From a virus, in IMG/VR virus record IMGVR_UViG_3300042514_000542, positions 60,370-124,369 of that record: a stretch of 64,000 nucleotides of DNA. One strand, written 5' to 3'. The notes beneath the pieces were generated by a model, which saw only the letters and a list, made by a program, of their open reading frames with translations, did no database searches and was not told where the DNA came from. A program made the position numbers and the translations under genes. This document shows positions 15,425 to 60,381 of this stretch, piece after piece. Numbering within the stretch: the first letter of the stretch is position 1; each line of letters opens with the position of its first letter.

Positions 15425-16924
15425 TTAGAAGTGTTTTGCTACCCTCTCACGAATCTCTGCAAGCGTCCATTCTCGAATAATTTTCCCGTTGTTGAAGACT
15501 TCAACAAATTCACAATTAAGAACATCATCCCAAGTTGCCTGATCCTTTAGGTAAAATTCACCTTCAAGATCTTTATAGACTGCGAGCAATCCTTTAGCCG
15601 ATTTCTTCATACCACTAGTATCAGTTTTAGGATCTTTGTAAATTTCCACCAATTCTCCATTCTTAACACAAGCTGTAGCTTTACAAGCCCACCCATCAGT
15701 ATCTCTTGTAACCATTTGATATGTAAAACTTCCGATACCCAAAACAAGATTAGTAGATGCGAAACCCTTAGCTTTAAGACCCTCGCAGATTCTTTCTGCT
15801 ACCTCTAAAGTCACTCCATCACCAAGGATAGCACCAACCTTTTCGTGTAGGACTTTATAACCCTTATCATTAACAGTTCCCCCAAAAATATCCCATAGAA
15901 GTTCAACAGTTCCCAATCTTTCGGGACTACCTTCTGGAGCATCAGGATCACCAATGATAATTAGAACATTATCACCACTATCAGGTCTAAATACCGTTTT
16001 ATTAACGAAGTGTCCTTCACGGGAAAGGATAGCCCTTTGCACATCTTCCTCTCTAAGAGTTACGTTTAGGAAAGACCAATAATCGTAGGTGTCAGAAACT
16101 AAGCTAACAATACCATAAGGTTGAACTTCAGTGATGATGTGAAGCATCATTTCCTTCTCGCTTTTATCTCCCCACGAAGAAACCACGCTATGCTCAGTTG
16201 CGCTCACACTACATCCGACTAATTCTTCATCCGAATTAGCATTGTAATACTCTTCGGCAAAGTCTACACCCCAAACAGTATCAGTTCCTACGAAGCTAGT
16301 TAAATGCCCCATATCTACTAATGCAGCAGCCTCGGTTCCCATACAACCACGGGCAGAAAAATTATGACCCTGAAAAGGAACAAATGTTTCGTCACCAGTT
16401 TCCTTAGCATATTTTTCAAGCAAGAGTCTAAACTGATTTGCGGTAGTCGCAGAAGTAGATAAAGGCCAATAATTAGCACTAATAATAGTTTCAAGATAAT
16501 TAGTTACCCAAAAGAAGTTTTCATCATTAGGTTTAGTATTCCAATATTGAAATGTCGGAACCTTATATGGAACCTTACTACCTTCAGGGAGAGCATATAC
16601 TTGGATAGGTAGATACCCTAGATCATGTAATGCTTCCATGTGCTTAGTTCCTACAACATTCTTCTCTCCCAAGTAGTTATTAACCCTTCTAGTAAAGCGT
16701 TTAATTACCTTTTCCTTTGGTTGATCAAAAAATCCATTCCATTGGTTGATGAAAATCTCTTTAATAACATACTGCATACCTAGTGCAACTACATGTTTCG
16801 GAATGTTTTTTCGATAGGATTTTCTAGGAGTTCCATTACTCACTACTTGTTCGGTATCTGGGTGATAAGCGTTCTTATGGAACATTTTATACCCATCAAT
16901 TTGTGTTTCAGCGTTGTTTTGCAT
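15425..16924 (-). CDS. nicotinamide phosphoribosyltransferase family protein (NadV/NAMPT-like; candidate Namat of an NARP1-type NAD+ reconstitution pathway)
   Basis: 499 aa; length and overall sequence match the NAMPT family from memory of phage NadV proteins. Confidence 0.6.
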   Translation of the reverse strand: MQNNAETQIDGYKMFHKNAYHPDTEQVVSNGTPRKSYRKNIPKHVVALGMQYVIKEIFINQWNGFFDQPKEKVIKRFTRRVNNYLGEKNVVGTKHMEALHDLGYLPIQVYALPEGSKVPYKVPTFQYWNTKPNDENFFWVTNYLETIISANYWPLSTSATTANQFRLLLEKYAKETGDETFVPFQGHNFSARGCMGTEAAALVDMGHLTSFVGTDTVWGVDFAEEYYNANSDEELVGCSVSATEHSVVSSWGDKSEKEMMLHIITEVQPYGIVSLVSDTYDYWSFLNVTLREEDVQRAILSREGHFVNKTVFRPDSGDNVLIIIGDPDAPEGSPERLGTVELLWDIFGGTVNDKGYKVLHEKVGAILGDGVTLEVAERICEGLKAKGFASTNLVLGIGSFTYQMVTRDTDGWACKATACVKNGELVEIYKDPKTDTSGMKKSAKGLLAVYKDLEGEFYLKDQATWDDVLNCEFVEVFNNGKIIREWTLAEIRERVAKHF

Positions 16925-16977: not shown

Positions 16978-17766
16978 ATGAAGTATTCAAAAGAAGAGGA
17001 ATCATTTATTATTGAGAACTACCCCAAATTCGGTGCGACTTATTGTAGTTCGGTTTTAATTAATAGAGATGTAGAAGCTGTCGGAGCTAAAGCTAGACGA
17101 ATGGGATTGCGACATGAAAGCAATTTTAAACATCCATCATTATGTAAAAATTTTTCTATAGACATAATTGAAAATCCGACAAAAGAGTTTGCATACTTAT
17201 TGGGGTTCTTATGGGCAGATGGATATATTTTAAAAAAGATTGATAAGAAAGGATTCAACCATAATAGAATTGTGTGTGAGATAGTGTCCGATGATTTTGA
17301 TATGATATGGAATAATTTTAAAGATTTTAGTAAGTGGTCTGTTAGTAAAAGAAAAAGAAGAGAGAATTGGAAGGAAACCAAAACTGCGACCATTAACAAT
17401 AAATATCTTTACGAATTTCTAGAATCTTTAGGTTTCAAATCTAAGCTTGAAGGATTCGATAAAGTATTTAAATACCTCCAGAAATTCAATCTTATTGATT
17501 ATTTTATATGTGGATTATTTGATGGTGATGGACATACTGATTTTAAAAAATTAATAGAATTATCATCTTCCATTTCCCAGAATTGGAAATCCATTGAAGA
17601 AATATTTAAAATTAATAACATTTCATACGGTCTTTATTATTACAAACATCCTACTAAAAACCATTCTGCATCCATTATTAAGATTCAAAATATTGAAGGT
17701 TTTAACTGGTTCAATAAAAACTTTCTTAAAAATGATATAGGTTTAAAAAGAAAGAGACTTAATTAA
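16978..17766 (+). CDS. LAGLIDADG homing endonuclease (N-terminal HTH-like region)
   Basis: LLGFLWADGY and GLFDGDGH motifs. + strand; its N-terminal codons read through a cassette motif copy at 17042-17063, so the true start may be the internal Met in RRMGLRHE. Confidence 0.55.
   Translation: MKYSKEEESFIIENYPKFGATYCSSVLINRDVEAVGAKARRMGLRHESNFKHPSLCKNFSIDIIENPTKEFAYLLGFLWADGYILKKIDKKGFNHNRIVCEIVSDDFDMIWNNFKDFSKWSVSKRKRRENWKETKTATINNKYLYEFLESLGFKSKLEGFDKVFKYLQKFNLIDYFICGLFDGDGHTDFKKLIELSSSISQNWKSIEEIFKINNISYGLYYYKHPTKNHSASIIKIQNIEGFNWFNKNFLKNDIGLKRKRLN
17042..17063 (-). promoter_or_regulatory. cassette motif copy displaced ~118 nt from the NAMPT-like start by homing-endonuclease insertion
   Basis: +strand ATTGTAGTTCGGTTTTAATTAA, lying inside the + strand endonuclease ORF. 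Confidence 0.5.
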
Positions 17767-28654: not shown

Positions 28655-29890
28655 TTATTTTACTTCTAATAGATATTTGATTCTGATTTGATTTCCATTA
28701 TAGACAATCAATTCGTCATTTAGGAAAGATGTGTTTTGTGGCAATGCCCAGCAGGAATCATATCCAGATGGTAATTGACTGAAAGTATGTTTTGTATAGT
28801 AAGGATTACCCATCACGAAGTCACAGATAAATAACCACCCACTATCACCCTTACCTTGACCCCATCTACCTAGAGTATACCCTAAACTTTTTGATGCTGT
28901 TTCAGATCCGTAAGTCCCGTTTCCAAAGGCTTTTCCGGCTATAGCGACAGTAGATGGTGGACTAGGTTGTAGACCACTTTTTAAAATACTGAGAATATTT
29001 GCGGAAGAACTTCCATGCCACACTTCCTTAACATTCACCGGATTCTTCACAAAGTTAGCATTGTAATCCACAATGTCAACCTCATAAATGTTGATAATTT
29101 TAACATGTTGATAATGATGCATTGGTTTATTCGTGCTATTATACCAATCTTGAATTTTCTTAATAACCTTGGGATCAGTCACCAGAGACATATTGAGATT
29201 GAATACCTTTTCAGTAGAAGGTTTAGTGGCATCAACAGGTGCTTTAAGTGCCATTTCAACACTGTTATCAAGAGCGTCCAATACATCAGATTCCTTCTTA
29301 ACTACATCAACATTTGGAAAGATATTCTCATATAATAATCCACCACCCTTTGGTCTTGGGATGATCTTAAGATAATCATCAATTTTTTGATTGAAATCAT
29401 CCTGACCATTCTTCTTAATGTTTTTGAAGAAGTAATCGAGTAGAATACGTGCCTCTGAGATACCCTCTTTGGTTACGATACCCAAGGGGGTTTGGAATAC
29501 ACCGTTATTGAAACTAATACTAGTTGAGTTGGTGATCTTATGGACATTGCTATCTGCAAGTCTCTTAACAAGAGTCTTAAGACTACTATCCGATAACTTA
29601 ATTTGTGATAAGGCGATATCCGCCAATGACGTATTAGCAATAACCTTATTGGTTACAGCACCTTCCATTAGGACTTTAGCATGAGTATAACCCTTACGTT
29701 CCTTCTCACGGATTTTCTTATCAAAAAATGACTTACCAACACATCCGAAATCCTTTGATTGTGGGTTCTTTGCCCCAACTACACCAAATTCCGCCATAAC
29801 TCTTCCGTCGTCATGTAATTCGGCTTGCCAAAACTTATATGAGTTAGCTTTTAAGTCTGAGAAAACGAGCTTTACTTTTTCTTTTATCAT
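28655..29890 (-). CDS. poly(ADP-ribose) polymerase-like protein (WGR domain + PARP catalytic domain)
   Basis: N-terminal WGR-like YKFWQAEL...FGVVG. C-terminal VWHGSSSANILSILKSGL...TYGSE...IVYNGNQIRIKYLLEVK aligns with the eukaryotic PARP1 catalytic core (LWHGS...IVYDIAQVNLKYLLKLKF) recalled from memory. Confidence 0.65.
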   Translation of the reverse strand: MIKEKVKLVFSDLKANSYKFWQAELHDDGRVMAEFGVVGAKNPQSKDFGCVGKSFFDKKIREKERKGYTHAKVLMEGAVTNKVIANTSLADIALSQIKLSDSSLKTLVKRLADSNVHKITNSTSISFNNGVFQTPLGIVTKEGISEARILLDYFFKNIKKNGQDDFNQKIDDYLKIIPRPKGGGLLYENIFPNVDVVKKESDVLDALDNSVEMALKAPVDATKPSTEKVFNLNMSLVTDPKVIKKIQDWYNSTNKPMHHYQHVKIINIYEVDIVDYNANFVKNPVNVKEVWHGSSSANILSILKSGLQPSPPSTVAIAGKAFGNGTYGSETASKSLGYTLGRWGQGKGDSGWLFICDFVMGNPYYTKHTFSQLPSGYDSCWALPQNTSFLNDELIVYNGNQIRIKYLLEVK

Positions 29891-37056: not shown

Positions 37057-37078
37057 ATTATACTTCGGTTTTAATTAA
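37057..37078 (-). promoter_or_regulatory. cassette motif copy
   Basis: +strand ATTATACTTCGGTTTTAATTAA. Confidence 0.6.
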
Positions 37079-38490
37079 CTCTCTTCCTCCATATCGGCTT
37101 CGTTATTATCCCTCGCAGCGGATTCCTTAATAACAAATTTAGGTGATTTGAATTTTAATGCGGTTCTCTTGGGATTGTTTTCAATTCTAAGAACAATACC
37201 CTCATTAACAACACCAGTGGTGCAAAGTTCACAATCCTTATCAAGATGAGCCTCCTTAAGTTTTGCCAAGAAATTATCATTCCAATCTTTATCCATAGGG
37301 ATATCATCAGCAAACATATCTCTAGCCAATCCAGTATAATATACTGGAACTGTTTTCAATCCAAGATCATGACAAAATTCCTCAATCTCATACCATTCCA
37401 ATTCGTAGATTTTACCTTCAGGTAGGTTACAAGTAATTCTATATACTCGGAATTCGCATTCACCTTTAGCTACACCGTAATCATAACCCTTTTGGATGGT
37501 CGCACCACCGGAGGTATATCCCACAATTTCACCATACACAGTATAACGTTCTGGAATTTCACCCTCAAGTTCTGCTGCAATAACACCCCATACATCATCA
37601 GTATAGTTCCCATCGCGTCTATTCTTAAGAACACTACGACTAGAGTATACGAACTTATATTCCGTGTCTGGAATATTAAGTCCAAGATTGGGTACATAAT
37701 ATCCGATCTTATTAAGAATAGGTCTAGTGATGCTGAATGGTTTCTTACAAAGAATGTTCGCAAAGATCGCAGACGTTCCATGCATCTTAGAAGATACCGT
37801 AATAAAATCATCAGGATTAACTAAGAAGATATTCCTACCAAGATGTTCAGTCTTATAATGAAATGCGAATTGACCATCAACAAGTTGAGATTTGATACCT
37901 TCGGCCTTTCTATTGAACCATGCATTAATAGGCTTATATAGTTTAACACGAATAGGTCTTGGCATGACACCAATGGTTTTCTCAACCCATTTTGGAACAC
38001 GGCTCTTTTTCTCATTAGCTTCACCGCTATTTCTAGCATCACCCTTAACGTATTTCTTGGCTAGAACATCTTCACCAACAGTATCAAAGATATCACCAAG
38101 TTTAAAGGTGTCTTCATCTACTTCATAATATTTTGCTAGTTCGGATACTTTGAATAGGAATCCTTGGGATGGAATGGATCTTAGGCCAATAGCCTTAACA
38201 CGACCATGCTTACCGAAAAATCCCTTGGTTTTTCCATCAGCATTAAGTTCGGCGTTATCTCTAAGATTTGCCCAAGATAGGAACTTAAGAGAAATGGCAC
38301 ATTCTACTGGAAAGTAGACCACAAGATCACCTTCGTTATAAGAACCTTTTCCAATGATAATAGTATTACCAAAGACTTCCACCAAAGAAAGTCTATCTGC
38401 GTTGGGGTGATCCTTAATAACAGGAACCTTTACGACAGTTGGTAGGTAGTTGGGATCTGCACCCTCGCTAATAGTTAATTTTGCTTTCAT
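37075..38490 (-). CDS. rnlB: RNA ligase 2-like enzyme fused to an N-terminal tRNA-binding (Myf/EMAP-II/Trbp111-type) OB domain
   Basis: N-terminus HPNADRLSLVEVFGNTIIIG resembles tRNA-binding domains; KMHGTSAIF matches T4 Rnl2 motif I KIHGTN; 471 aa. Confidence 0.55.
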   Translation of the reverse strand: MKAKLTISEGADPNYLPTVVKVPVIKDHPNADRLSLVEVFGNTIIIGKGSYNEGDLVVYFPVECAISLKFLSWANLRDNAELNADGKTKGFFGKHGRVKAIGLRSIPSQGFLFKVSELAKYYEVDEDTFKLGDIFDTVGEDVLAKKYVKGDARNSGEANEKKSRVPKWVEKTIGVMPRPIRVKLYKPINAWFNRKAEGIKSQLVDGQFAFHYKTEHLGRNIFLVNPDDFITVSSKMHGTSAIFANILCKKPFSITRPILNKIGYYVPNLGLNIPDTEYKFVYSSRSVLKNRRDGNYTDDVWGVIAAELEGEIPERYTVYGEIVGYTSGGATIQKGYDYGVAKGECEFRVYRITCNLPEGKIYELEWYEIEEFCHDLGLKTVPVYYTGLARDMFADDIPMDKDWNDNFLAKLKEAHLDKDCELCTTGVVNEGIVLRIENNPKRTALKFKSPKFVIKESAARDNNEADMEEES

Positions 38491-38496
38491 AGTGTG

Positions 38497-38518
38497 ATTA
38501 TACTTCGGTTTTAATTAA
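38497..38518 (-). promoter_or_regulatory. cassette motif copy (translated as C-terminal ..LIKTEV of the upstream gene)
   Basis: +strand ATTATACTTCGGTTTTAATTAA. Confidence 0.6.
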
Positions 38519-38800
38519 GTCCTTCTTCAGTTCACCAAATGTTTTCGATCTATTATGGTAGCCATATTCAATAATTTCTGATAGATATTTATCATCTTCA
38601 AATCGGGCAACTGGTGAACCAGAAAACATCCAAGATACACTACCACACCATTCAAATTCTGGAAATCCATTATGTCTACCATATTGAACCATAACACAAC
38701 CACAGGGGTCGTTATCAAGACATTCTCTCATATCAACATTTCTATCATCGGGTTGTGATTCAATCCAATCGTGAAATTCTTTAATTTTTACTCTTTTCAT
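38498..38800 (-). CDS. hypothetical protein
   Basis: 100 aa; stop is the TAA of the TATAAT-like box. Confidence 0.5.
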   Translation of the reverse strand: MKRVKIKEFHDWIESQPDDRNVDMRECLDNDPCGCVMVQYGRHNGFPEFEWCGSVSWMFSGSPVARFEDDKYLSEIIEYGYHNRSKTFGELKKDLIKTEV

Positions 38801-38981
38801 TTAATTTCTCTATTTCTTTCTCGGTTTTTTCTTTAATCTTTTTAGCAACTTCCAGCATTTTTAATGCGAAATCATCTGGATGTTTTTCTACATGAATCTC
38901 CCAGAACATGACATACCCAATGGCATTCATCAAGCGTTTACCGTAGATTCTTTTAAGTCTGTATGGATCTTCTTCAAGCAT
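38781..38981 (-). CDS. hypothetical protein
   Basis: 66-aa Lys/Glu-rich ORF. Confidence 0.35.
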   Translation of the reverse strand: MLEEDPYRLKRIYGKRLMNAIGYVMFWEIHVEKHPDDFALKMLEVAKKIKEKTEKEIEKLNEKSKN

Positions 38982-39045
38982 TCTTTACATGTCACTCTTT
39001 TACGTTTCGGTGTAACTCTACCAGACGATTGTGAGAATTCCATAT

Positions 39046-39897
39046 TTATTCAAAATCGCGGATACTATGGATAAAGGGAAATCTGGGAATTTGCTTATCA
39101 GGTGTCTTATTAAAGAAAACCACAGTAGCCAATTTACCAATGTAGTTATCCTTGTTATCTAACAGTTCTTTAAGGTATGCTCTATCACCTTTAATATTGG
39201 AATTGAAACTATGTCCAAGTTCGTTTTCAAAAACCATAGCACCTGCAAGCCCCGCACGATTTCCAACACCTTCCACAATATCAAGAATCTTATACTCTTC
39301 ATCTTGGAATTCTTTCCTCTTAAGAAGATTAGCAGAACGCTTGAATTCATACGGTGTATCGAGTCGAACCATTTGACCCTCATAACCTCTATCAAGATAT
39401 GCACCATAAACTTTATCTAAGGTTTCAAGATCATCAATTCTTTGTGTAGTTACTCTAACAATACAATCGGGAAGATTAAAATTTTCTTTGATTGTTTTGA
39501 TCCAATTTTTACGTTGTCTAAAAGTGTGTTTATCACTGGCAGTATCATACCACCAGAATTGAACCATTTCGGCACTTTCCACCAAATCATCTTTGGTCGG
39601 TTTTTGCTTCTTAATCAAAGATGACATTTTGTTGAAGTCATGCTTCAAATCGTGGTTGTATAATTCACCATCAAGGATCAAATCTGGATACTTTTCAAAT
39701 ACGGGTTCCAGTGCTTCAAGAATATGTGGAATAGTTGCCCAAGGTTTACCATTACGAGACTTTGCCCCATTACGAGTAATCACCGCTCGACAATTATGAA
39801 CTAATATATCATTAGCGTAGAAGTTATGATTATCTTCTACTTCTATATCATATCGATCATAAAAATCTTCTAATTTTTCTATCTTAACAATTTTCAT
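39046..39897 (-). CDS. ATP-dependent DNA ligase C-terminal fragment, preceded by a split-intein C-half (IntC, ~35 aa)
   Basis: Starts MKIVKIEKLEDFYDRYDIEVEDNHNFYANDILVHN|C, closely resembling Npu DnaE IntC (MIKIATRKYLGKQNVYDIGVERDHNFALKNGFIASN|C). Ligase motifs follow: ILDGELY, GYEGQMVR, LLKRK. Confidence 0.7.
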   Translation of the reverse strand: MKIVKIEKLEDFYDRYDIEVEDNHNFYANDILVHNCRAVITRNGAKSRNGKPWATIPHILEALEPVFEKYPDLILDGELYNHDLKHDFNKMSSLIKKQKPTKDDLVESAEMVQFWWYDTASDKHTFRQRKNWIKTIKENFNLPDCIVRVTTQRIDDLETLDKVYGAYLDRGYEGQMVRLDTPYEFKRSANLLKRKEFQDEEYKILDIVEGVGNRAGLAGAMVFENELGHSFNSNIKGDRAYLKELLDNKDNYIGKLATVVFFNKTPDKQIPRFPFIHSIRDFE

Positions 39898-40777
39898 ATT
39901 TATTTAAAATCTCCTCAACTCGTTCTTTATTAATCTCATCATCCCAAATAGTCTCAAAGTTATAATTTAAATTGATTATGTGGTCTTCTTTTATTTTATC
40001 TCTTTGCCATATTTGTTCCGCTGTTAACTTTCCATGGATTGTATTGAACATATCATGTGGTTTATAATATTTTGGATTTGCGTGCCAAAAGCACCCGTTA
40101 ACCTCAATCACCAATTTTTTATTAGGTATGTATATATCAACAATTGGGCAAAACCTTCTCTCCATAATTGGATTGTAAGATTTAAAGTATTCATTTGTTT
40201 CGGTTTCATATTCTACTCCCAAATCGTCTAAAATCTGCAATGTATCTCTATGCGGTTTAGATAATCTAAATGTCTTTCGAAAAAATCCCGGAATCTCCGA
40301 TGGATGCTCGACACCATGATTAGTTATCCAGTAATCTTTAATTTTTTGTTTAATTACAGGAGATTTAAAATTATTATCTACTCCATATGTGTCTAAACAT
40401 TTTAATCTCTTTTGTTCCTTTACTATATTTGACTGGGATATATTTGTTATATTCTCACCATATTTCTCTCTTATAGTTTTAATTTTACTGGCACTAACAC
40501 TTGGAAGGAAACATGTATCGGAAATGTTTCTAGTTTCAACTCCTGTTTCATTTCGTAATCTATCTATAATAACACCAGCACCACCTATAGATATTCCAAT
40601 TTCTTGGAAATACTTGACTATAGAGTTTGCACTCATATGTTCATTAAGATATAAATCAATTAATAAATCATTTGTTATTATTTCTCTAATATATTTTCTT
40701 CTATCGTGATTATTTGGGTGTTTCGACAATACATCTCTATCCAATATCAAGCTTTCAAATTTTTCCTTTTCAGTCAT
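39884..40777 (-). CDS. free-standing Vsr-like (PD-(D/E)XK) homing endonuclease between the intein halves
   Basis: 297 aa; LVIEVNGCFWHANP matches the Vsr signature FxDGCFWHxH; separated by stop codons from the IntN ORF and overlaps the IntC ORF by 14 nt. Confidence 0.6.
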   Translation of the reverse strand: MTEKEKFESLILDRDVLSKHPNNHDRRKYIREIITNDLLIDLYLNEHMSANSIVKYFQEIGISIGGAGVIIDRLRNETGVETRNISDTCFLPSVSASKIKTIREKYGENITNISQSNIVKEQKRLKCLDTYGVDNNFKSPVIKQKIKDYWITNHGVEHPSEIPGFFRKTFRLSKPHRDTLQILDDLGVEYETETNEYFKSYNPIMERRFCPIVDIYIPNKKLVIEVNGCFWHANPKYYKPHDMFNTIHGKLTAEQIWQRDKIKEDHIINLNYNFETIWDDEINKERVEEILNKYENC

Positions 40778-40816
40778 CTATATTATTTAGTCAAAACTGG
40801 ATGGTTTCAACCAAAA

Positions 40817-41506
40817 TTAGATGGAATTTTTTAAAGTTTCTGTTCCATCCAATTCATCGACTCTTCGCCAACATTTAAGATTATCTACCCAAACTCTATG
40901 ATTACCAGTAAGAACTAACTCTTTACCACTGTCTGTTGTAATTTTATACCAATTAGATGTTTTCTCTTTTATGTCTACTCCGTTCAACATAACACATTTT
41001 ATAGACTTGTATTCATTCTCCCCTGTAGTCTCGTTATAAGTTTTAATTTTTGGTAAATCTGTTGTCATAGAATCTAGAAATAATTCATACAACTCATGTA
41101 TCTTCATATCTTCATTTTCTAATGATATCATACTATATCCATGCAAACATCCATCAAGCTTGGGTTGACTATATACAGGAAATTTTACCTTATCTTTACG
41201 GTCTTCCCATTTCTTAGCAAGCATGGGTTCTACGTATTCAGAGGTGTCGATCTTTGAGATATCAACATGATATCCAGTGTCCTTCTTCTTAGTCCAAGAT
41301 GCTTGTGCTTCGAATAACGCCTGTTCTTCTGGTGTTCTTTGATTTGCACGATTTTCGTTTGTAACTAAACAGACAGTCCATTCCGTAGTCTGTAACTTGC
41401 CATTAAGTTGTCCATGAATAGTTCTATACGAATCTTTTTCGATTTCTACAGTCCATGTTTGAATCGCTCCCGTATTTGTTCGGGAATATAATGTGGGTAG
41501 TTGCAT
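40817..41506 (-). CDS. ATP-dependent DNA ligase N-terminal fragment (through motif I KLDG) fused to a split-intein N-half (IntN, ~120 aa)
   Basis: KVKFPVYSQPKLDG|CLHGYSM... cf. T4 gp30 KFPAFAQLKADGARC. Intein block B ELVLTGNHRVWVDN; ends ...LKNSI then stop. Confidence 0.7.
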   Translation of the reverse strand: MQLPTLYSRTNTGAIQTWTVEIEKDSYRTIHGQLNGKLQTTEWTVCLVTNENRANQRTPEEQALFEAQASWTKKKDTGYHVDISKIDTSEYVEPMLAKKWEDRKDKVKFPVYSQPKLDGCLHGYSMISLENEDMKIHELYELFLDSMTTDLPKIKTYNETTGENEYKSIKCVMLNGVDIKEKTSNWYKITTDSGKELVLTGNHRVWVDNLKCWRRVDELDGTETLKNSI

Positions 41507-41513
41507 GTGATGA

Positions 41514-41535
41514 TTATAGTTCGGTTTTAATTAAT
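41514..41535 (-). promoter_or_regulatory. cassette motif copy (printed coordinates may be off by 1 nt here)
   Basis: +strand ATTATAGTTCGGTTTTAATTAA; encodes the C-terminal ..LIKTEL of the YopX gene. Confidence 0.6.
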
Positions 41536-41957
41536 TCGGGATTTTCGTAGATATTTCCAATAATTTCATATTTTTTAAAATCCTTGGATGTGTGGTTAAA
41601 GGCTCTACCGACTACTTCTGACTTAGATTCTCCGATCCTTCTATATATGTAAGGTGAATTAAAACTACCATCATAAAAGTCCACAACCATAAGAAATCTC
41701 AAATCTATTCCTTGCATCTGATGAAAGTTTTTAGATATAGTTTCTAAGATATCTCCCTCATAAATCTCTTTACCGTTTTTATCTTTAAATCCAGTGAATT
41801 GCATAACCTTAGAATACTTCAACCAATCATTGAAATCCCACACATCACCACCCCGACCACTCATTGAGTTATGTTCTACATGATGTTTTTCAATACCATG
41901 ATGCATTTTATCATTATACCACGCTCTAAATTTAATTTCTCTATTCATATCATTCAA
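41514..41957 (-). CDS. YopX-family protein
   Basis: 147 aa; EIKFRAWYNDKM... and C-terminal EIIGNIYENPEL match the YopX domain. Confidence 0.55.
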   Translation of the reverse strand: MNDMNREIKFRAWYNDKMHHGIEKHHVEHNSMSGRGGDVWDFNDWLKYSKVMQFTGFKDKNGKEIYEGDILETISKNFHQMQGIDLRFLMVVDFYDGSFNSPYIYRRIGESKSEVVGRAFNHTSKDFKKYEIIGNIYENPELIKTEL

Positions 41958-42175
41958 CCATCATAAACTCCAAGCTGTCTCCAACCTCTTCTTCCCCAAA
42001 CAAAATCACAACCATCCTTGTGTCCACTCTCGTCTGTAATATCAACTAACCCTTTACAATTTTCACAACATTTAAAATTGTCCAAATCAGAATTTTTTAA
42101 CTTAGTCCCATCAAACGGACAATACCAATATCCATCTTGATCATAATTGGCTAGACATTTGGGACATCTTATCAT
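41954..42175 (-). CDS. zinc-ribbon protein
   Basis: 73 aa with CPKC...CP and CCENCK Cys pairs. Confidence 0.45.
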   Translation of the reverse strand: MIRCPKCLANYDQDGYWYCPFDGTKLKNSDLDNFKCCENCKGLVDITDESGHKDGCDFVWGRRGWRQLGVYDG

Positions 42176-42717
42176 AATGGAATGTATACTGAACTTTTTG
42201 GCTTCTCTGTAGGCTTCATTTCCCCATTATCTATATCATAGATGATAAATTCAACAGGGAATTTTGATTCAATATCCTTAAGGATAGCTTCTACAATGAT
42301 CCACGAACCACCAGCACGAACAGATGCCATACCGTATGGAATACCAATAGTGAATGGAGATTCTAGTTTACATAGTCGATCACATGCTCTATAGATAGCA
42401 TCATATAGATAGTCATACCTACAGTTCCTATTTAAAGGATGACCATCATTACCGATACCAACTTGGCCATATAGATTAATGACCAACCTATTATCAGGTA
42501 GAATTGCGACTGAACTTCTACCGAGTTTATCGCTCTTTTGAGCTATCATACTACTACCCATGAGATTATCATGATAATCTAAGTCTGCTTGATAAACCTC
42601 TGGCCATTTTTCCTTAAGGTAGTATGCAATACCACTACCCATAACACATTCGATATTGGCACAATGCATTGCAACATCCCAATCCCCGTCAAGCAAATTT
42701 CCTTTTTTATATTTCAT
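42172..42717 (-). CDS. macro-domain protein (ADP-ribose binding/hydrolase)
   Basis: KKGNLLDGDWDVAMHCANIECVMGSGIAYYL fits the macro-domain N-terminal signature. Confidence 0.55.
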   Translation of the reverse strand: MKYKKGNLLDGDWDVAMHCANIECVMGSGIAYYLKEKWPEVYQADLDYHDNLMGSSMIAQKSDKLGRSSVAILPDNRLVINLYGQVGIGNDGHPLNRNCRYDYLYDAIYRACDRLCKLESPFTIGIPYGMASVRAGGSWIIVEAILKDIESKFPVEFIIYDIDNGEMKPTEKPKSSVYIPL

Positions 42718-44086: not shown

Positions 44087-45100
44087 ATGGTGTGTGATAG
44101 GTTAAATATATTTATGCGAAAGTCAAAAATTAGTTTAGCAGATGAAGAAGCGATTGTCAATCAGTATTTAAAGGAAAAAAATGTAGAAAAATTAAGATCT
44201 AAATATAAAACATCATTTAAAGATATTAAAAATATTCTAATTAAAAATAATATATATTCAGGTAGAAGATCAACTTCATTGAATTTAAAATATTTTGAAA
44301 ATATAGATAGTAATGAAAAAGCTTATTGGTTAGGATTTATTTCGGCTGATGGATCTTTGTCTAAAAATGGGTATAAATTATCCTTTGGTGTTAAGGATTC
44401 TGATATATTAGAAAAATTTAAAAGAGCCATATCATCTGGAAGCCCTGTATCAGATTTCAACGTATATGATGAGAGGACAGATAAAACTTACAATAGATAT
44501 AGTCTTCAGATATGTTCTAAAGAATTTTGCCAATATATAAGAAATCATGGAGTTGATGAAAACAAGTCAAAAGTATTCAAATTCCCAAAGATTGATGAGA
44601 AATATTACTCCCATTTTATTAGAGGGTTATATGACGGTGATGGTAGTATATGTATAGTCAAATCCAAGGTTATAGAGAATATCAACTTTAGGGCAAATAT
44701 TATAAGTTCTTTGGAGTGTGTTAACTACATTAAAGTTTATTTAGAAAGCATCAATATCTCATCTAATAAAATATTTTCCAAACACGACCAAAATATTCAC
44801 TATATTACATTTGGAAAGGACGTTATTAAATTTTTAAATTGGATTTATAAAGACTCATCCGAAGAAACTAGGTTGGATAGAAAATACAATAAATTTATCG
44901 ATAATCTACATGATTATAATACCCAACATAAGATTTTTCAAATTAAAAATCATCAAACCGGAGTTACACATAAAGTTAAGAATTTGATTAAATTCTGTAA
45001 AGATAATAATTTAAACGATAATTACTTGAGGTATAATATGACTAATGGAAAAATTCCAACAAAAGGTAAGCACTTAGGATGGGAATTATTACCCAATTAA
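44087..45100 (+). CDS. LAGLIDADG homing endonuclease
   Basis: LGFISADGS and GLYDGDGS motifs; + strand; no cassette motif upstream. Confidence 0.6.
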   Translation: MVCDRLNIFMRKSKISLADEEAIVNQYLKEKNVEKLRSKYKTSFKDIKNILIKNNIYSGRRSTSLNLKYFENIDSNEKAYWLGFISADGSLSKNGYKLSFGVKDSDILEKFKRAISSGSPVSDFNVYDERTDKTYNRYSLQICSKEFCQYIRNHGVDENKSKVFKFPKIDEKYYSHFIRGLYDGDGSICIVKSKVIENINFRANIISSLECVNYIKVYLESINISSNKIFSKHDQNIHYITFGKDVIKFLNWIYKDSSEETRLDRKYNKFIDNLHDYNTQHKIFQIKNHQTGVTHKVKNLIKFCKDNNLNDNYLRYNMTNGKIPTKGKHLGWELLPN

Positions 45101-60358: not shown

Positions 60359-60381
60359 ATTATTATTTAGTTATAAAGTTA

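Follow-up and report, generated by a model that had tools for sequence, protein, structure and literature searches.

A fractured ATP-dependent DNA ligase gene with split intein halves and a free-standing EDxHD endonuclease gene in a large phage contig

How could a phage obtain an intact DNA ligase from a gene that is broken into two reading frames at motif I, with an endonuclease gene lying between the pieces? This question is raised by a locus in the IMG/VR virus record IMGVR_UViG_3300042514_000542, of which we analyzed positions 60,370 to 124,369 (64,000 nucleotides (nt), hereafter the window; coordinates refer to it). The locus consists of three open reading frames (ORFs): ORF-N with the first part of the ligase, an endonuclease ORF, and ORF-C with the remainder of the ligase. 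Based on profile searches, structural comparison and related phage contigs, we consider it a functional 'fractured' ATP-dependent DNA ligase gene of a large myovirus-like phage, with a probability of about 0.85. An earlier note, made from the letters of the window, had placed the genes at the correct coordinates; their orientation is corrected here, since all three ORFs are on the minus strand.

Interruption of the ligase gene at motif I

ORF-N (41506..40817; 229 amino acids (aa), 26.6 kDa) contains ligase residues 1-119, of which the final ones are KFPVYSQPKLDG, followed by an N-terminal intein half (IntN) of 110 aa that reads CLHGYS...LTGNHRVW...CWRRVDELDGTETLKNSI and then stops. The endonuclease ORF (40777..39884) has its own ATG at 40777. 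ORF-C (39897..39046; 283 aa, 33.3 kDa) begins with a C-terminal intein half (IntC) of 35 aa, its N-terminus being MKIVKIEKLEDFYDRYDIEVEDNHNFYANDILVHN|CRAVITRNG, and carries ligase residues 120-367 from CRAVITRNGAKSRNGKPW onward. Between IntN and the endonuclease ORF there are three in-frame stops (TAA, TAA, TAG), and the endonuclease ORF in turn overlaps ORF-C by 14 nt (39884..39897) in a different frame; given these stops and the frame change, we rejected a fusion of the three ORFs by readthrough or frameshifting. The inserted element of 1,357 nt (39793..41149) is located directly after the Gly119 codon of motif I KLDG and is composed of IntN, a 39-nt spacer, the EDxHD endonuclease gene and IntC. 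Rfam gave no match at E <= 1 over 38000-42500, which excludes a group I intron around the endonuclease gene; the gene is therefore free-standing. The features of the locus are:

41150..41506, minus strand: ligase N-extein, residues 1-119, matching phrog_114 positions 124-250 and ending at motif I K116-L-D-G119
40817..41149, minus strand: IntN, 110 aa plus stop codon, matching TIGR01445 and positions 1-92 of Pfam Intein_splicing; Cys1 codon at 41149..41147, TAA stop at 40819..40817, block B T81-G-N-H84 in LTGNHRVW, conserved CWRRVDEL tail
40778..40816, minus strand: non-coding spacer, 39 nt, from the IntN stop to the nuclease ATG, with two additional in-frame stops inside
40775..40823, minus strand: predicted RNA hairpin, minimum free energy -14.8 kcal/mol, z = -2.3
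40792..40825, minus strand: two antisense pseudo-copies of the left half of the homing site (direct repeats), a candidate operator
39884..40777, minus strand: putative free-standing homing endonuclease gene, 297 aa, 35.1 kDa, with Pfam, PHROG and NCBIfam matches, an AlphaFold2 (AF2) model and Foldseek matches
39793..39897, minus strand: IntC, 35 aa, MKIVKIEKLEDFYDRYDIEVEDNHNFYANDILVHN, with blocks F and G and the terminal H-N, matching TIGR01443 and positions 122-155 of Pfam Intein_splicing
39046..39792, minus strand: ligase C-extein, 248 aa plus stop; Cys+1 codon at 39792..39790, motifs III-V and OB domain

The profile of phrog_114 (ATP-dependent DNA ligase) is matched at positions 124-250 in ORF-N and 250-499 in ORF-C, and since the coverage of both fragments abuts at one profile position (250), the break is seamless. 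Further matches of ORF-C are Pfam DNA_ligase_A_M (PF01068; 1e-9), DNA_ligase_OB_2 (PF14743) and NF006592 (1e-23), in addition to phrog_114 itself (1e-50). The ligase motifs follow one another as I (K116LDG), III (LDGELY), IIIa (WYD), IV (EGQMVR) and V (LLKRK), with the OB domain thereafter; K116 of motif I is predicted to be the lysine that becomes adenylated. The joined exteins amount to a predicted spliced ligase of 367 aa and 42.8 kDa, colinear with uninterrupted ligases of 366-395 aa, and solved ligases, including that of PBCV-1, align with it across the junction (KLDGcRA vs KLDGiRA in 4d05 and KLDGvRv in 6rau). The predicted ligase is a small enzyme, nearer the Lig E, P-SSM2 and PBCV-1 type than T4 gp30, to which the earlier note had suggested aligning the fragments.

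IMG/VR contains ~28 relatives of the ligase that are uninterrupted, the closest being L004-L007 (L and P numbers are our own labels), with 81-83% identity in the C-extein; the N-extein of the window is 78-79% identical to the N-terminal 119 residues of L004-L006, and 96% to the corresponding part of the intein-less P0030. The ligases of these closest relatives measure 366-367 aa and contain QPKLDG[L/M]RAVITR. L006, at 367 aa of the same length as the predicted spliced product, has QPKLDG|MRAVITRNG where the window has QPKLDG|CRAVITRNG, and reads YCQPKLDG-MRAVITRNGAKSRNG in comparison to YSQPKLDG-[intein]-CRAVITRNGAKSRNG. Around the insertion site, the empty alleles L005 and L006 read ...TCAACCAAAACTTGATGG|NTGMGAGCAGTT..., and because such alleles match the exteins of the window on both sides, the 1,357-nt element is an insertion into a known ligase. 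In clustering at 90% or more, another protein, P0008 (373 aa), falls together with the C-extein of the window. Among 50,697 phage records, megablast returned nothing that matched the locus, so that the phage has no close cultured relative among them, and tblastn found only ligases at or below 42% identity. Apparent coverage of IntC in the matches to RpAliso, vB_OspM_OC and RcXuper was discarded as a spurious N-terminal extension of the alignments, the ligases of these phages being uninterrupted.

Natural split inteins have an IntN of ~100-125 aa and an IntC of ~35-40 aa, and are split at the loop of nested endonuclease domains. In the window, the NCBIfam models TIGR01445 (intein_Nterm; 29.6 bits, cutoff 24.5) and TIGR01443 (intein_Cterm; 37.3 bits, cutoff 15.6) matched residues 120-206 of ORF-N and 16-36 of ORF-C, respectively, and Pfam Intein_splicing was divided between the two ORFs. 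When the joined halves (145 aa) were compared with solved mini-inteins, the best relatives were the Spl DnaX mini-intein (1.5e-8) and gp41-1 (6qaz; 5e-8), followed by NrdJ-1 (8ubs; 3e-5). The residues required for splicing are present, namely Cys1, T81-G-N-H84, H144-N145 and Cys+1. Among 32 diverged proteins composed of a ligase N-fragment and IntN, the K-L-D-G-C junction (its Cys being C120) and block B G201 and N202 are invariant, and block B T200 and H203 (ORF-N numbering) are conserved in at least 90%. The joined halves also align end to end with contiguous inteins of the same ligase site, with HN|C invariant, and the LAGLIDADG domain of one of these, P0258, is inserted at the alignment position of the split in the window. 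The window thus encodes a predicted canonical class-1 intein split in two.

The endonuclease ORF, which contains ...LVIEVNGCFWHANP... and ...VDIYIPNKKLVIEVNGCFWHANPKYY..., matched Vsr and DUF7487 in Pfam, the latter over the N-terminal region (residues ~1-160). Sequence-only matches to Vsr were weak, and phmmer with the single protein as query found nothing significant in PDB (E = 0.65 to 3r3p). Multiple-sequence alignment of 25 homologues showed D214, E225, G228, W231, H232 and D260 to be invariant, and the resulting profile matched E. coli Vsr (1cw0; E = 1e-3) and the catalytic domain of I-Bth0305I (3r3p; E = 2e-3) in PDB. In these alignments D214, E225, W231-H232 and D260 correspond to D51, the F62 position, W68-H69 and D97 of Vsr. 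The EDxHD family is defined by conserved E, D, H and D residues, with the E at the F62 position of Vsr (Taylor et al. 2011, PMC3239194). An AF2 model of the endonuclease (predicted local distance difference test score, pLDDT, 90.7) has an all-helical N-terminal half (residues 1-160) and a C-terminal alpha/beta domain, the Vsr-like EDxHD nuclease domain comprising residues ~172-297. With this domain, Foldseek returned a probability of 1.00 both to Vsr (1cw0, 1vsr; target-normalised TM-score 0.57) and to I-Bth0305I (3r3p; target-normalised TM-score 0.68, 24% identity), and a Pfam search of the protein gave no profile match to NUMOD. On alignment and fold we assign it to the EDxHD (Vsr-like) homing endonuclease family, with presumed cleavage and homing activity.

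The earlier note had outlined much of this architecture. Its ligase fragment that ends at motif I, runs into an IntN with Cys1 and LTGNHRVW and then stops is borne out by ORF-N and the TIGR01445 match, and its following frame with its own Met, a 35-aa IntC and a ligase C-terminal domain with motifs III-V by TIGR01443 and Pfam. The seamless KLDG|CR junction which it expected is seen against the uninterrupted ligases, and the separate 297-aa Vsr-type ORF agrees with the profile matches to Vsr, the fold and the EDxHD residues. Its description of the IntC as nearly superimposable on that of DnaE went too far: the two are related, but they share 11/22 identities over the C-terminal part.

We propose that the two ligase fragments would be translated separately, and that IntN and IntC would associate into a canonical class-1 HINT fold with Cys1, the block B Thr and His, the penultimate His, the terminal Asn and Cys+1 as catalytic residues. 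Trans-splicing would then yield the ligase of 367 aa and 42.8 kDa, the sole scar being Cys120 at the x position of KxDGxR. Since the break separates the adenylated lysine from motifs III-V, ligase activity should depend on splicing.

Relatives of the locus and probable movement of the cassette

The three-ORF layout recurs in at least 10 independent metagenomic contigs, among them L084, L085, L088, L089, L092, L095, L098 and L103, and one contig without DNA. Spacer and overlap measure 39 and 14 nt in both L084 and L085, 27 and 11 nt in L088, and 43 and 47 nt in L089. At the protein level, a search of 5.8 billion proteins revealed ~50 clusters of 218-250 aa that span ORF-N end to end at 39-87% identity. 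Comparison of the window with L084 gave the following nucleotide identities, synonymous divergences (dS) and ratios of nonsynonymous to synonymous divergence (dN/dS):

IntN: identity 94%, dS 0.29, dN/dS 0.08
Spacer: identity 100%
Endonuclease gene: identity 91%, dS 0.52, dN/dS 0.04
IntC: identity 96%, dS 0.24, dN/dS 0.06
Exteins: identity 76-77%, dS 1.2, dN/dS 0.13

The low dN/dS values (0.04-0.08) indicate that intein and endonuclease are under strong purifying selection and probably functional. Since the dS of the cassette is 0.24-0.52 in comparison to 1.2 for the exteins, the cassette appears to have moved between ligase alleles after these had diverged. Its GC content is 29%, with 37-39% in the exteins. 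Together, the pattern indicates that the cassette has spread horizontally between phages, as homing would predict.

Our survey of phage contigs revealed five states of the ligase motif I site. It is uninterrupted (empty) in L004-L029; it carries a contiguous mini-intein in L090/P0247 (141 aa), P0278 and P0332; and it carries a contiguous intein of ~355-360 aa in a third group, in which LAGLIDADG motifs were seen in P0258, P0358 and P0366, with L100-L102 and L106 assigned to this state by intein length only. The fourth state is a split intein with an EDxHD endonuclease gene, and the fifth a split intein without it (L091, L099). Both contigs of the fifth state (L091, 3600-3860; L099, 3650-3945) keep the last ~17-20 endonuclease codons between IntN and IntC, namely ...VVWDDEI...ILNKYEN* in L091 and ...VIWEQEY...ILNAIKN* in L099. 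These remnants are deletion scars, and on the 5' side the deletion stops at the GGTTA that is conserved in the pseudo-site motif described below. The intein-less ligase P0030 (368 aa; L086:5001-6107) has 93-98% identity to the window N-extein and 46-87% downstream of the junction, a mosaic breakpoint at the endonuclease-gene boundary.

In the mechanism that we propose, the endonuclease would act on ligase alleles without an intein in co-infecting relatives, cutting them close to the sequence that encodes motif I, and repair would copy the whole cassette into the cut allele.

Related cassettes are also found in other genes. IntC with an endonuclease gene occurs at motif I of a DNA ligase dependent on nicotinamide adenine dinucleotide (NAD) (L032:4200-7519, KLDG|C; Pfam DNA_ligase_aden, OB and BRCT), and at motif I of a T4 Rnl2-type RNA ligase (L067:4460-6996, KVHG|C). 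In IMG/VR, a YxDTD|S motif is fractured by a split intein and a Vsr-like endonuclease in L055, L057, L061, L070, L071, L075, L081 and L082; by motif context only, these eight loci look like family B DNA polymerase. A second fractured ATP-dependent ligase in IMG/VR, L030 (= L113, IMGVR_UViG_3300045125_000101), has the same cassette at a motif I that reads KYNG. All three of its ORFs contain many frameshifts, too many for fine analysis; an error-prone assembly is more likely here than a pseudogene. As a separate observation, a ligase N-fragment in L096/L097:2974-4146 leads into an intein start and, after ~55 residues, into unrelated sequence (264 aa after Cys1), with no IntC-ligase fragment downstream; either the contig is chimeric or the gene has undergone a different rearrangement.

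The spacer, its pseudo-copies of the homing site and the surroundings of the locus

The spacer is 100% identical to that of the window in L084 and 97% in L085, whereas flanking coding DNA is only 64-77% identical. Its predicted hairpin has a 12-bp inner stem (40815..40804 with 40797..40786) and a 6-bp outer stem (40823..40818 with 40780..40775) that sequesters the nuclease AUG (40777..40775). Four of 200 shuffled sequences folded as well as that of the window; the same fold is predicted in L085, and a stronger AUG-sequestering hairpin in L089 (z = -3.9). No Shine-Dalgarno sequence was found ahead of the endonuclease AUG, and because of this and of the burial of the AUG in the hairpin the endonuclease is expected to be translated poorly. 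The best promoter-like site (40810..40782) was not relied on, as transcription from it would begin at or after the ATG. A scan for sigma-70 promoters and terminators returned 17 sites, with 18.4 expected from shuffles. The late-promoter octamer TATAAATA occurs once in the 64-kb window (57904), in comparison to 10.8 occurrences expected from shuffles, a marked depletion.

A conserved motif of ~18 nt, TCCATCNAATTTTGGTTG, straddles or follows the IntN stop in fractured-ligase loci. In the window, two direct repeats 20 nt apart between the end of IntN and the start of the endonuclease gene resemble the coding sequence of motif I in antisense. Copy 1 (40825..40808, minus strand) is TCCATCTAATTTTGGTTG, of which the reverse complement, CAA CCA AAA TTA GAT GGA, encodes QPKLDG; copy 2 (40804..40792, minus strand) is CCATCCAGTTTTG, of which the reverse complement, TCA AAA CTG GAT GG, encodes SKLDG when base 40791 is included. 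The match of the pseudo-copy to the empty-allele site is 15/17 nt, and there are two copies. A degenerate antisense KLDG-coding pattern was detected near the IntN stop in nine of the 11 fractured-ligase loci (the window, L084, L085, L088, L089, L091, L092, L095 and L103), amounting to 12 matches in 1,210 nt as against 4 in 82 kb elsewhere (Poisson P ~4e-24, with loci that are not all independent). No mirrored pseudo-copy of the right flank, i.e., the C-extein start, was found within the cassette. Most of the variation among the loci is at wobble positions, as would be expected if the site were recognized by a protein to which synonymous changes in its target make little difference.

In the polB-type loci the inverted pattern is weaker than in the ligase loci and was found in three of eight (L055, L057 and L082), in which the 5' untranslated region of the endonuclease gene holds an inverted copy with a reverse complement that encodes [I/L][Y/F]xDT. 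L070 and L081 have a match to the target site in direct orientation at the end of the IntN ORF, and the tail of this ORF in L081, ...IIDTDSME, repeats the DTDS of the target.

By analogy with I-TevI, we tentatively suggest that the pseudo-copies might bind the EDxHD endonuclease, as an operator that mimics the target and serves autoregulation or titration; we regard this as possible rather than probable. If true, fractured genes would have a regulatory feature that has not been reported before, and the recognition sequence of the endonuclease could be read directly from genomes. The pseudo-copies offer a simple hypothesis for the control of these nucleases.

The exact proteins of the window are on record in NCBI and JGI (206,590-bp contig), where they carry no annotation beyond hypothetical protein, G:T-mismatch repair endonuclease and DNA ligase-1. 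The surroundings of the ligase have a conserved gene order, in which a macro- or phosphatase-like gene and a YopX-like gene are followed by the ligase and an RNA ligase; downstream of the window ligase there are two small ORFs and then the RNA ligase. This 471-aa RNA ligase near the DNA ligase (37075-38490), a PARP-catalytic and WGR protein (28655-29890), NAPRTase (15425-16924) and a phrog_335 ('phosphatase') protein (42172-42717), all on the minus strand, look like a module for NAD and ADP-ribose metabolism and nucleic-acid repair. Most genes of the window are on the minus strand. Among the few large ORFs on the plus strand are three (16978-17766, 44087-45100 and 266-1030) that resemble free-standing endonuclease genes; two match LAGLIDADG_3 (1e-6, 5e-9; phrog_4645), and one is MTES_1575/Vsr-like (weak), with faint similarity to the endonuclease of the ligase locus.

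Competing explanations and known systems

Several observations weigh against a functional fractured ligase with a mobile cassette. Opposite net charges on the two halves are typical of natural split inteins, without defining them; such complementarity was not seen over the whole fragments, with IntN at -5 (its C-terminal half at 0) and IntC at -5. The hairpin is modest in the window (z = -2.3), and none is predicted in L088. The GAGGAG at 39916..39911 lies 13 nt 5' of the ORF-C ATG, beyond the optimal distance, and the T4-type late promoter TATAAATA that was reported in many of the 2009 loci is absent from the window locus. L091 and L099 have lost the endonuclease; the host can thus do without it, and in some lineages it may no longer be active. 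Trans-splicing, ligase activity, endonuclease cleavage with its specificity, and regulation are inferences from sequence.

How far, then, do other explanations account for the locus? It might be an artefact of assembly or sequencing, and in reality one continuous intein-containing ligase with a nested endonuclease domain, as contiguous inteins (mini-inteins and LAGLIDADG inteins) exist at this ligase site and the related contig L030 is full of frameshifts. We regard this as effectively refuted already, and its chance as negligible: three in-frame stops lie between IntN and the endonuclease ORF, a change of frame with 14 nt of overlap lies between the endonuclease ORF and IntC, the ORF boundaries are identical in independent JGI, ENA and Logan assemblies, the endonucleases nested in contiguous alleles are LAGLIDADG and not Vsr-like, and the dN/dS patterns fit three separate ORFs. 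The sequencing error by which the earlier note would have overturned its own proposal is thereby excluded as well. We give little credence to a dead ligase, with its pieces decaying as pseudogenes, or to intein halves that act as a mere non-covalent dimerisation module as in Aeh1 NrdA. Purifying selection on the exteins (dN/dS 0.13), and more on the intein halves (0.06-0.08), the conservation of Cys1, TxxH, HN and Cys+1 in the 32 diverged homologues and in contiguous relatives, and intact ORFs in many lineages all stand against it; a mere dimerisation module would not conserve splicing residues. What it has in its favor is that gene fragments which assemble non-covalently after endonuclease insertion are documented (PMC3045599), that splicing is here predicted from sequence, and that whole-fragment charge complementarity is missing.

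A third possibility accepts splicing and takes the endonuclease as a domesticated or decaying passenger, e.g., a DNA-binding regulator, that no longer drives homing, with vertical inheritance only. The deletion scars in L091 and L099 show that the endonuclease can be lost without loss of the split intein, and the pseudo-target sites 5' of its start hint at a DNA-binding or regulatory role. In contrast, the endonuclease has a dN/dS of 0.04 and all its EDxHD catalytic residues are invariant, empty target alleles are abundant in close relatives, and P0030 has an identity break at the insertion site (93-98% upstream vs 46-87% downstream). Furthermore, the dS of the cassette is 2-5 times below that of the exteins, with identities of 91-100% vs 76-77% between the window and L084; this lower dS and higher identity point to recent lateral transfer between diverged ligase alleles. 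A pure passenger is accordingly improbable to us, and we favor a trans-spliced ligase with a cassette that still moves by homing.

On this favored reading, the complete, sequence-verified pair in the window (IntN 110 aa, IntC 35 aa; Cys1, Cys+1 and Gly at -1) is a candidate for the orthogonal split-intein toolbox, which arose from the fractured genes of 2009 (gp41-1, NrdJ-1, IMPDH-1). With the five allelic states at motif I, natural donors and recipients are at hand for work on the gene-fracture model and on EDxHD homing, and the cassettes at motif I of NAD-dependent DNA ligase and Rnl2-type RNA ligase suggest a selfish element that tracks a superfamily-wide motif.

Among known systems, the gp41-1, NrdJ-1 and IMPDH-1 split inteins come from the metagenomic loci described in 2009 and are in use now as protein-ligation tools. 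They are, like that of the window, naturally split class-1 phage inteins, with the IntC tail ...NHxFYANDIL(V/T)HN in common; they differ in host protein and insertion site, the window having Cys as +1 nucleophile and an IntN of 110 aa. The cyanobacterial split DnaE intein (Ssp, Npu) shares the architecture of an IntN of ~100-120 aa and an IntC of ~35 aa, split at the endonuclease-insertion loop; it ends in ...ASN, whereas the IntC of the window ends in ...VHN, and the genes for its halves lie apart in the genome, without an intervening endonuclease gene (PMC2677866). I-Bth0305I, the EDxHD family prototype (Taylor et al. 2011, PMC3239194; PDB 3R3P), resembles the endonuclease of the locus in its C-terminal Vsr-like nuclease domain, in which E, D, H and D are conserved. 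Its gene lies within a recA group I intron, while the window gene is free-standing between intein halves and matches DUF7487 in its N-terminal region. I-TevI is reported to repress its own expression through an operator like its own homing site at 15/20 nt (Edgell et al. 2004, reviewed in PMC2988022). Both endonucleases have a homing-site-like sequence just 5' of the ORF, but I-TevI is of another family and the copies in the window are antisense to the target. In phage Aeh1, the free-standing endonuclease gene mobE similarly splits an essential DNA-metabolism gene, nrdA; a hairpin regulates translation of the endonuclease, and its 3' end overlaps the downstream fragment. There is no intein, and the NrdA fragments assemble non-covalently (PMC3045599).

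The closest counterpart is the group of fractured genes described by Dassa, London, Stoddard, Schueler-Furman & Pietrokovski (2009, NAR 37:2560; PMC2677866); the earlier note had named this arrangement as a match, and the paper indeed describes this layout. The 2009 loci have a spacer of 27-51 nt, an overlap of 6-69 bp, a free-standing GIY-YIG or Vsr-like endonuclease and a phage origin, and 15/16 of them have a hairpin in the 5' untranslated region of the endonuclease gene, often with TATAAATA (PMC2677866). The window has the same gene layout, with a spacer of 39 nt and an overlap of 14 nt that lie within the published ranges, but is without the TATAAATA late promoter. Among the eight host enzymes listed in 2009 is a DNA ligase from Lake Gatun, a locus outside the five reported with both termini and with a 5'-3' exonuclease gene downstream (PMC2677866); the locus of the window, in contrast, is complete in a contig of ~207 kb and has a different neighborhood. 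Given this listing and the dozens of ligase-N+IntN clusters in databases, the earlier note had overstated the novelty of its find. Arrangement and host enzyme class were both published in 2009 and no new principle is involved; the window holds no new kind of system, but a complete example of the arrangement first described in that year.

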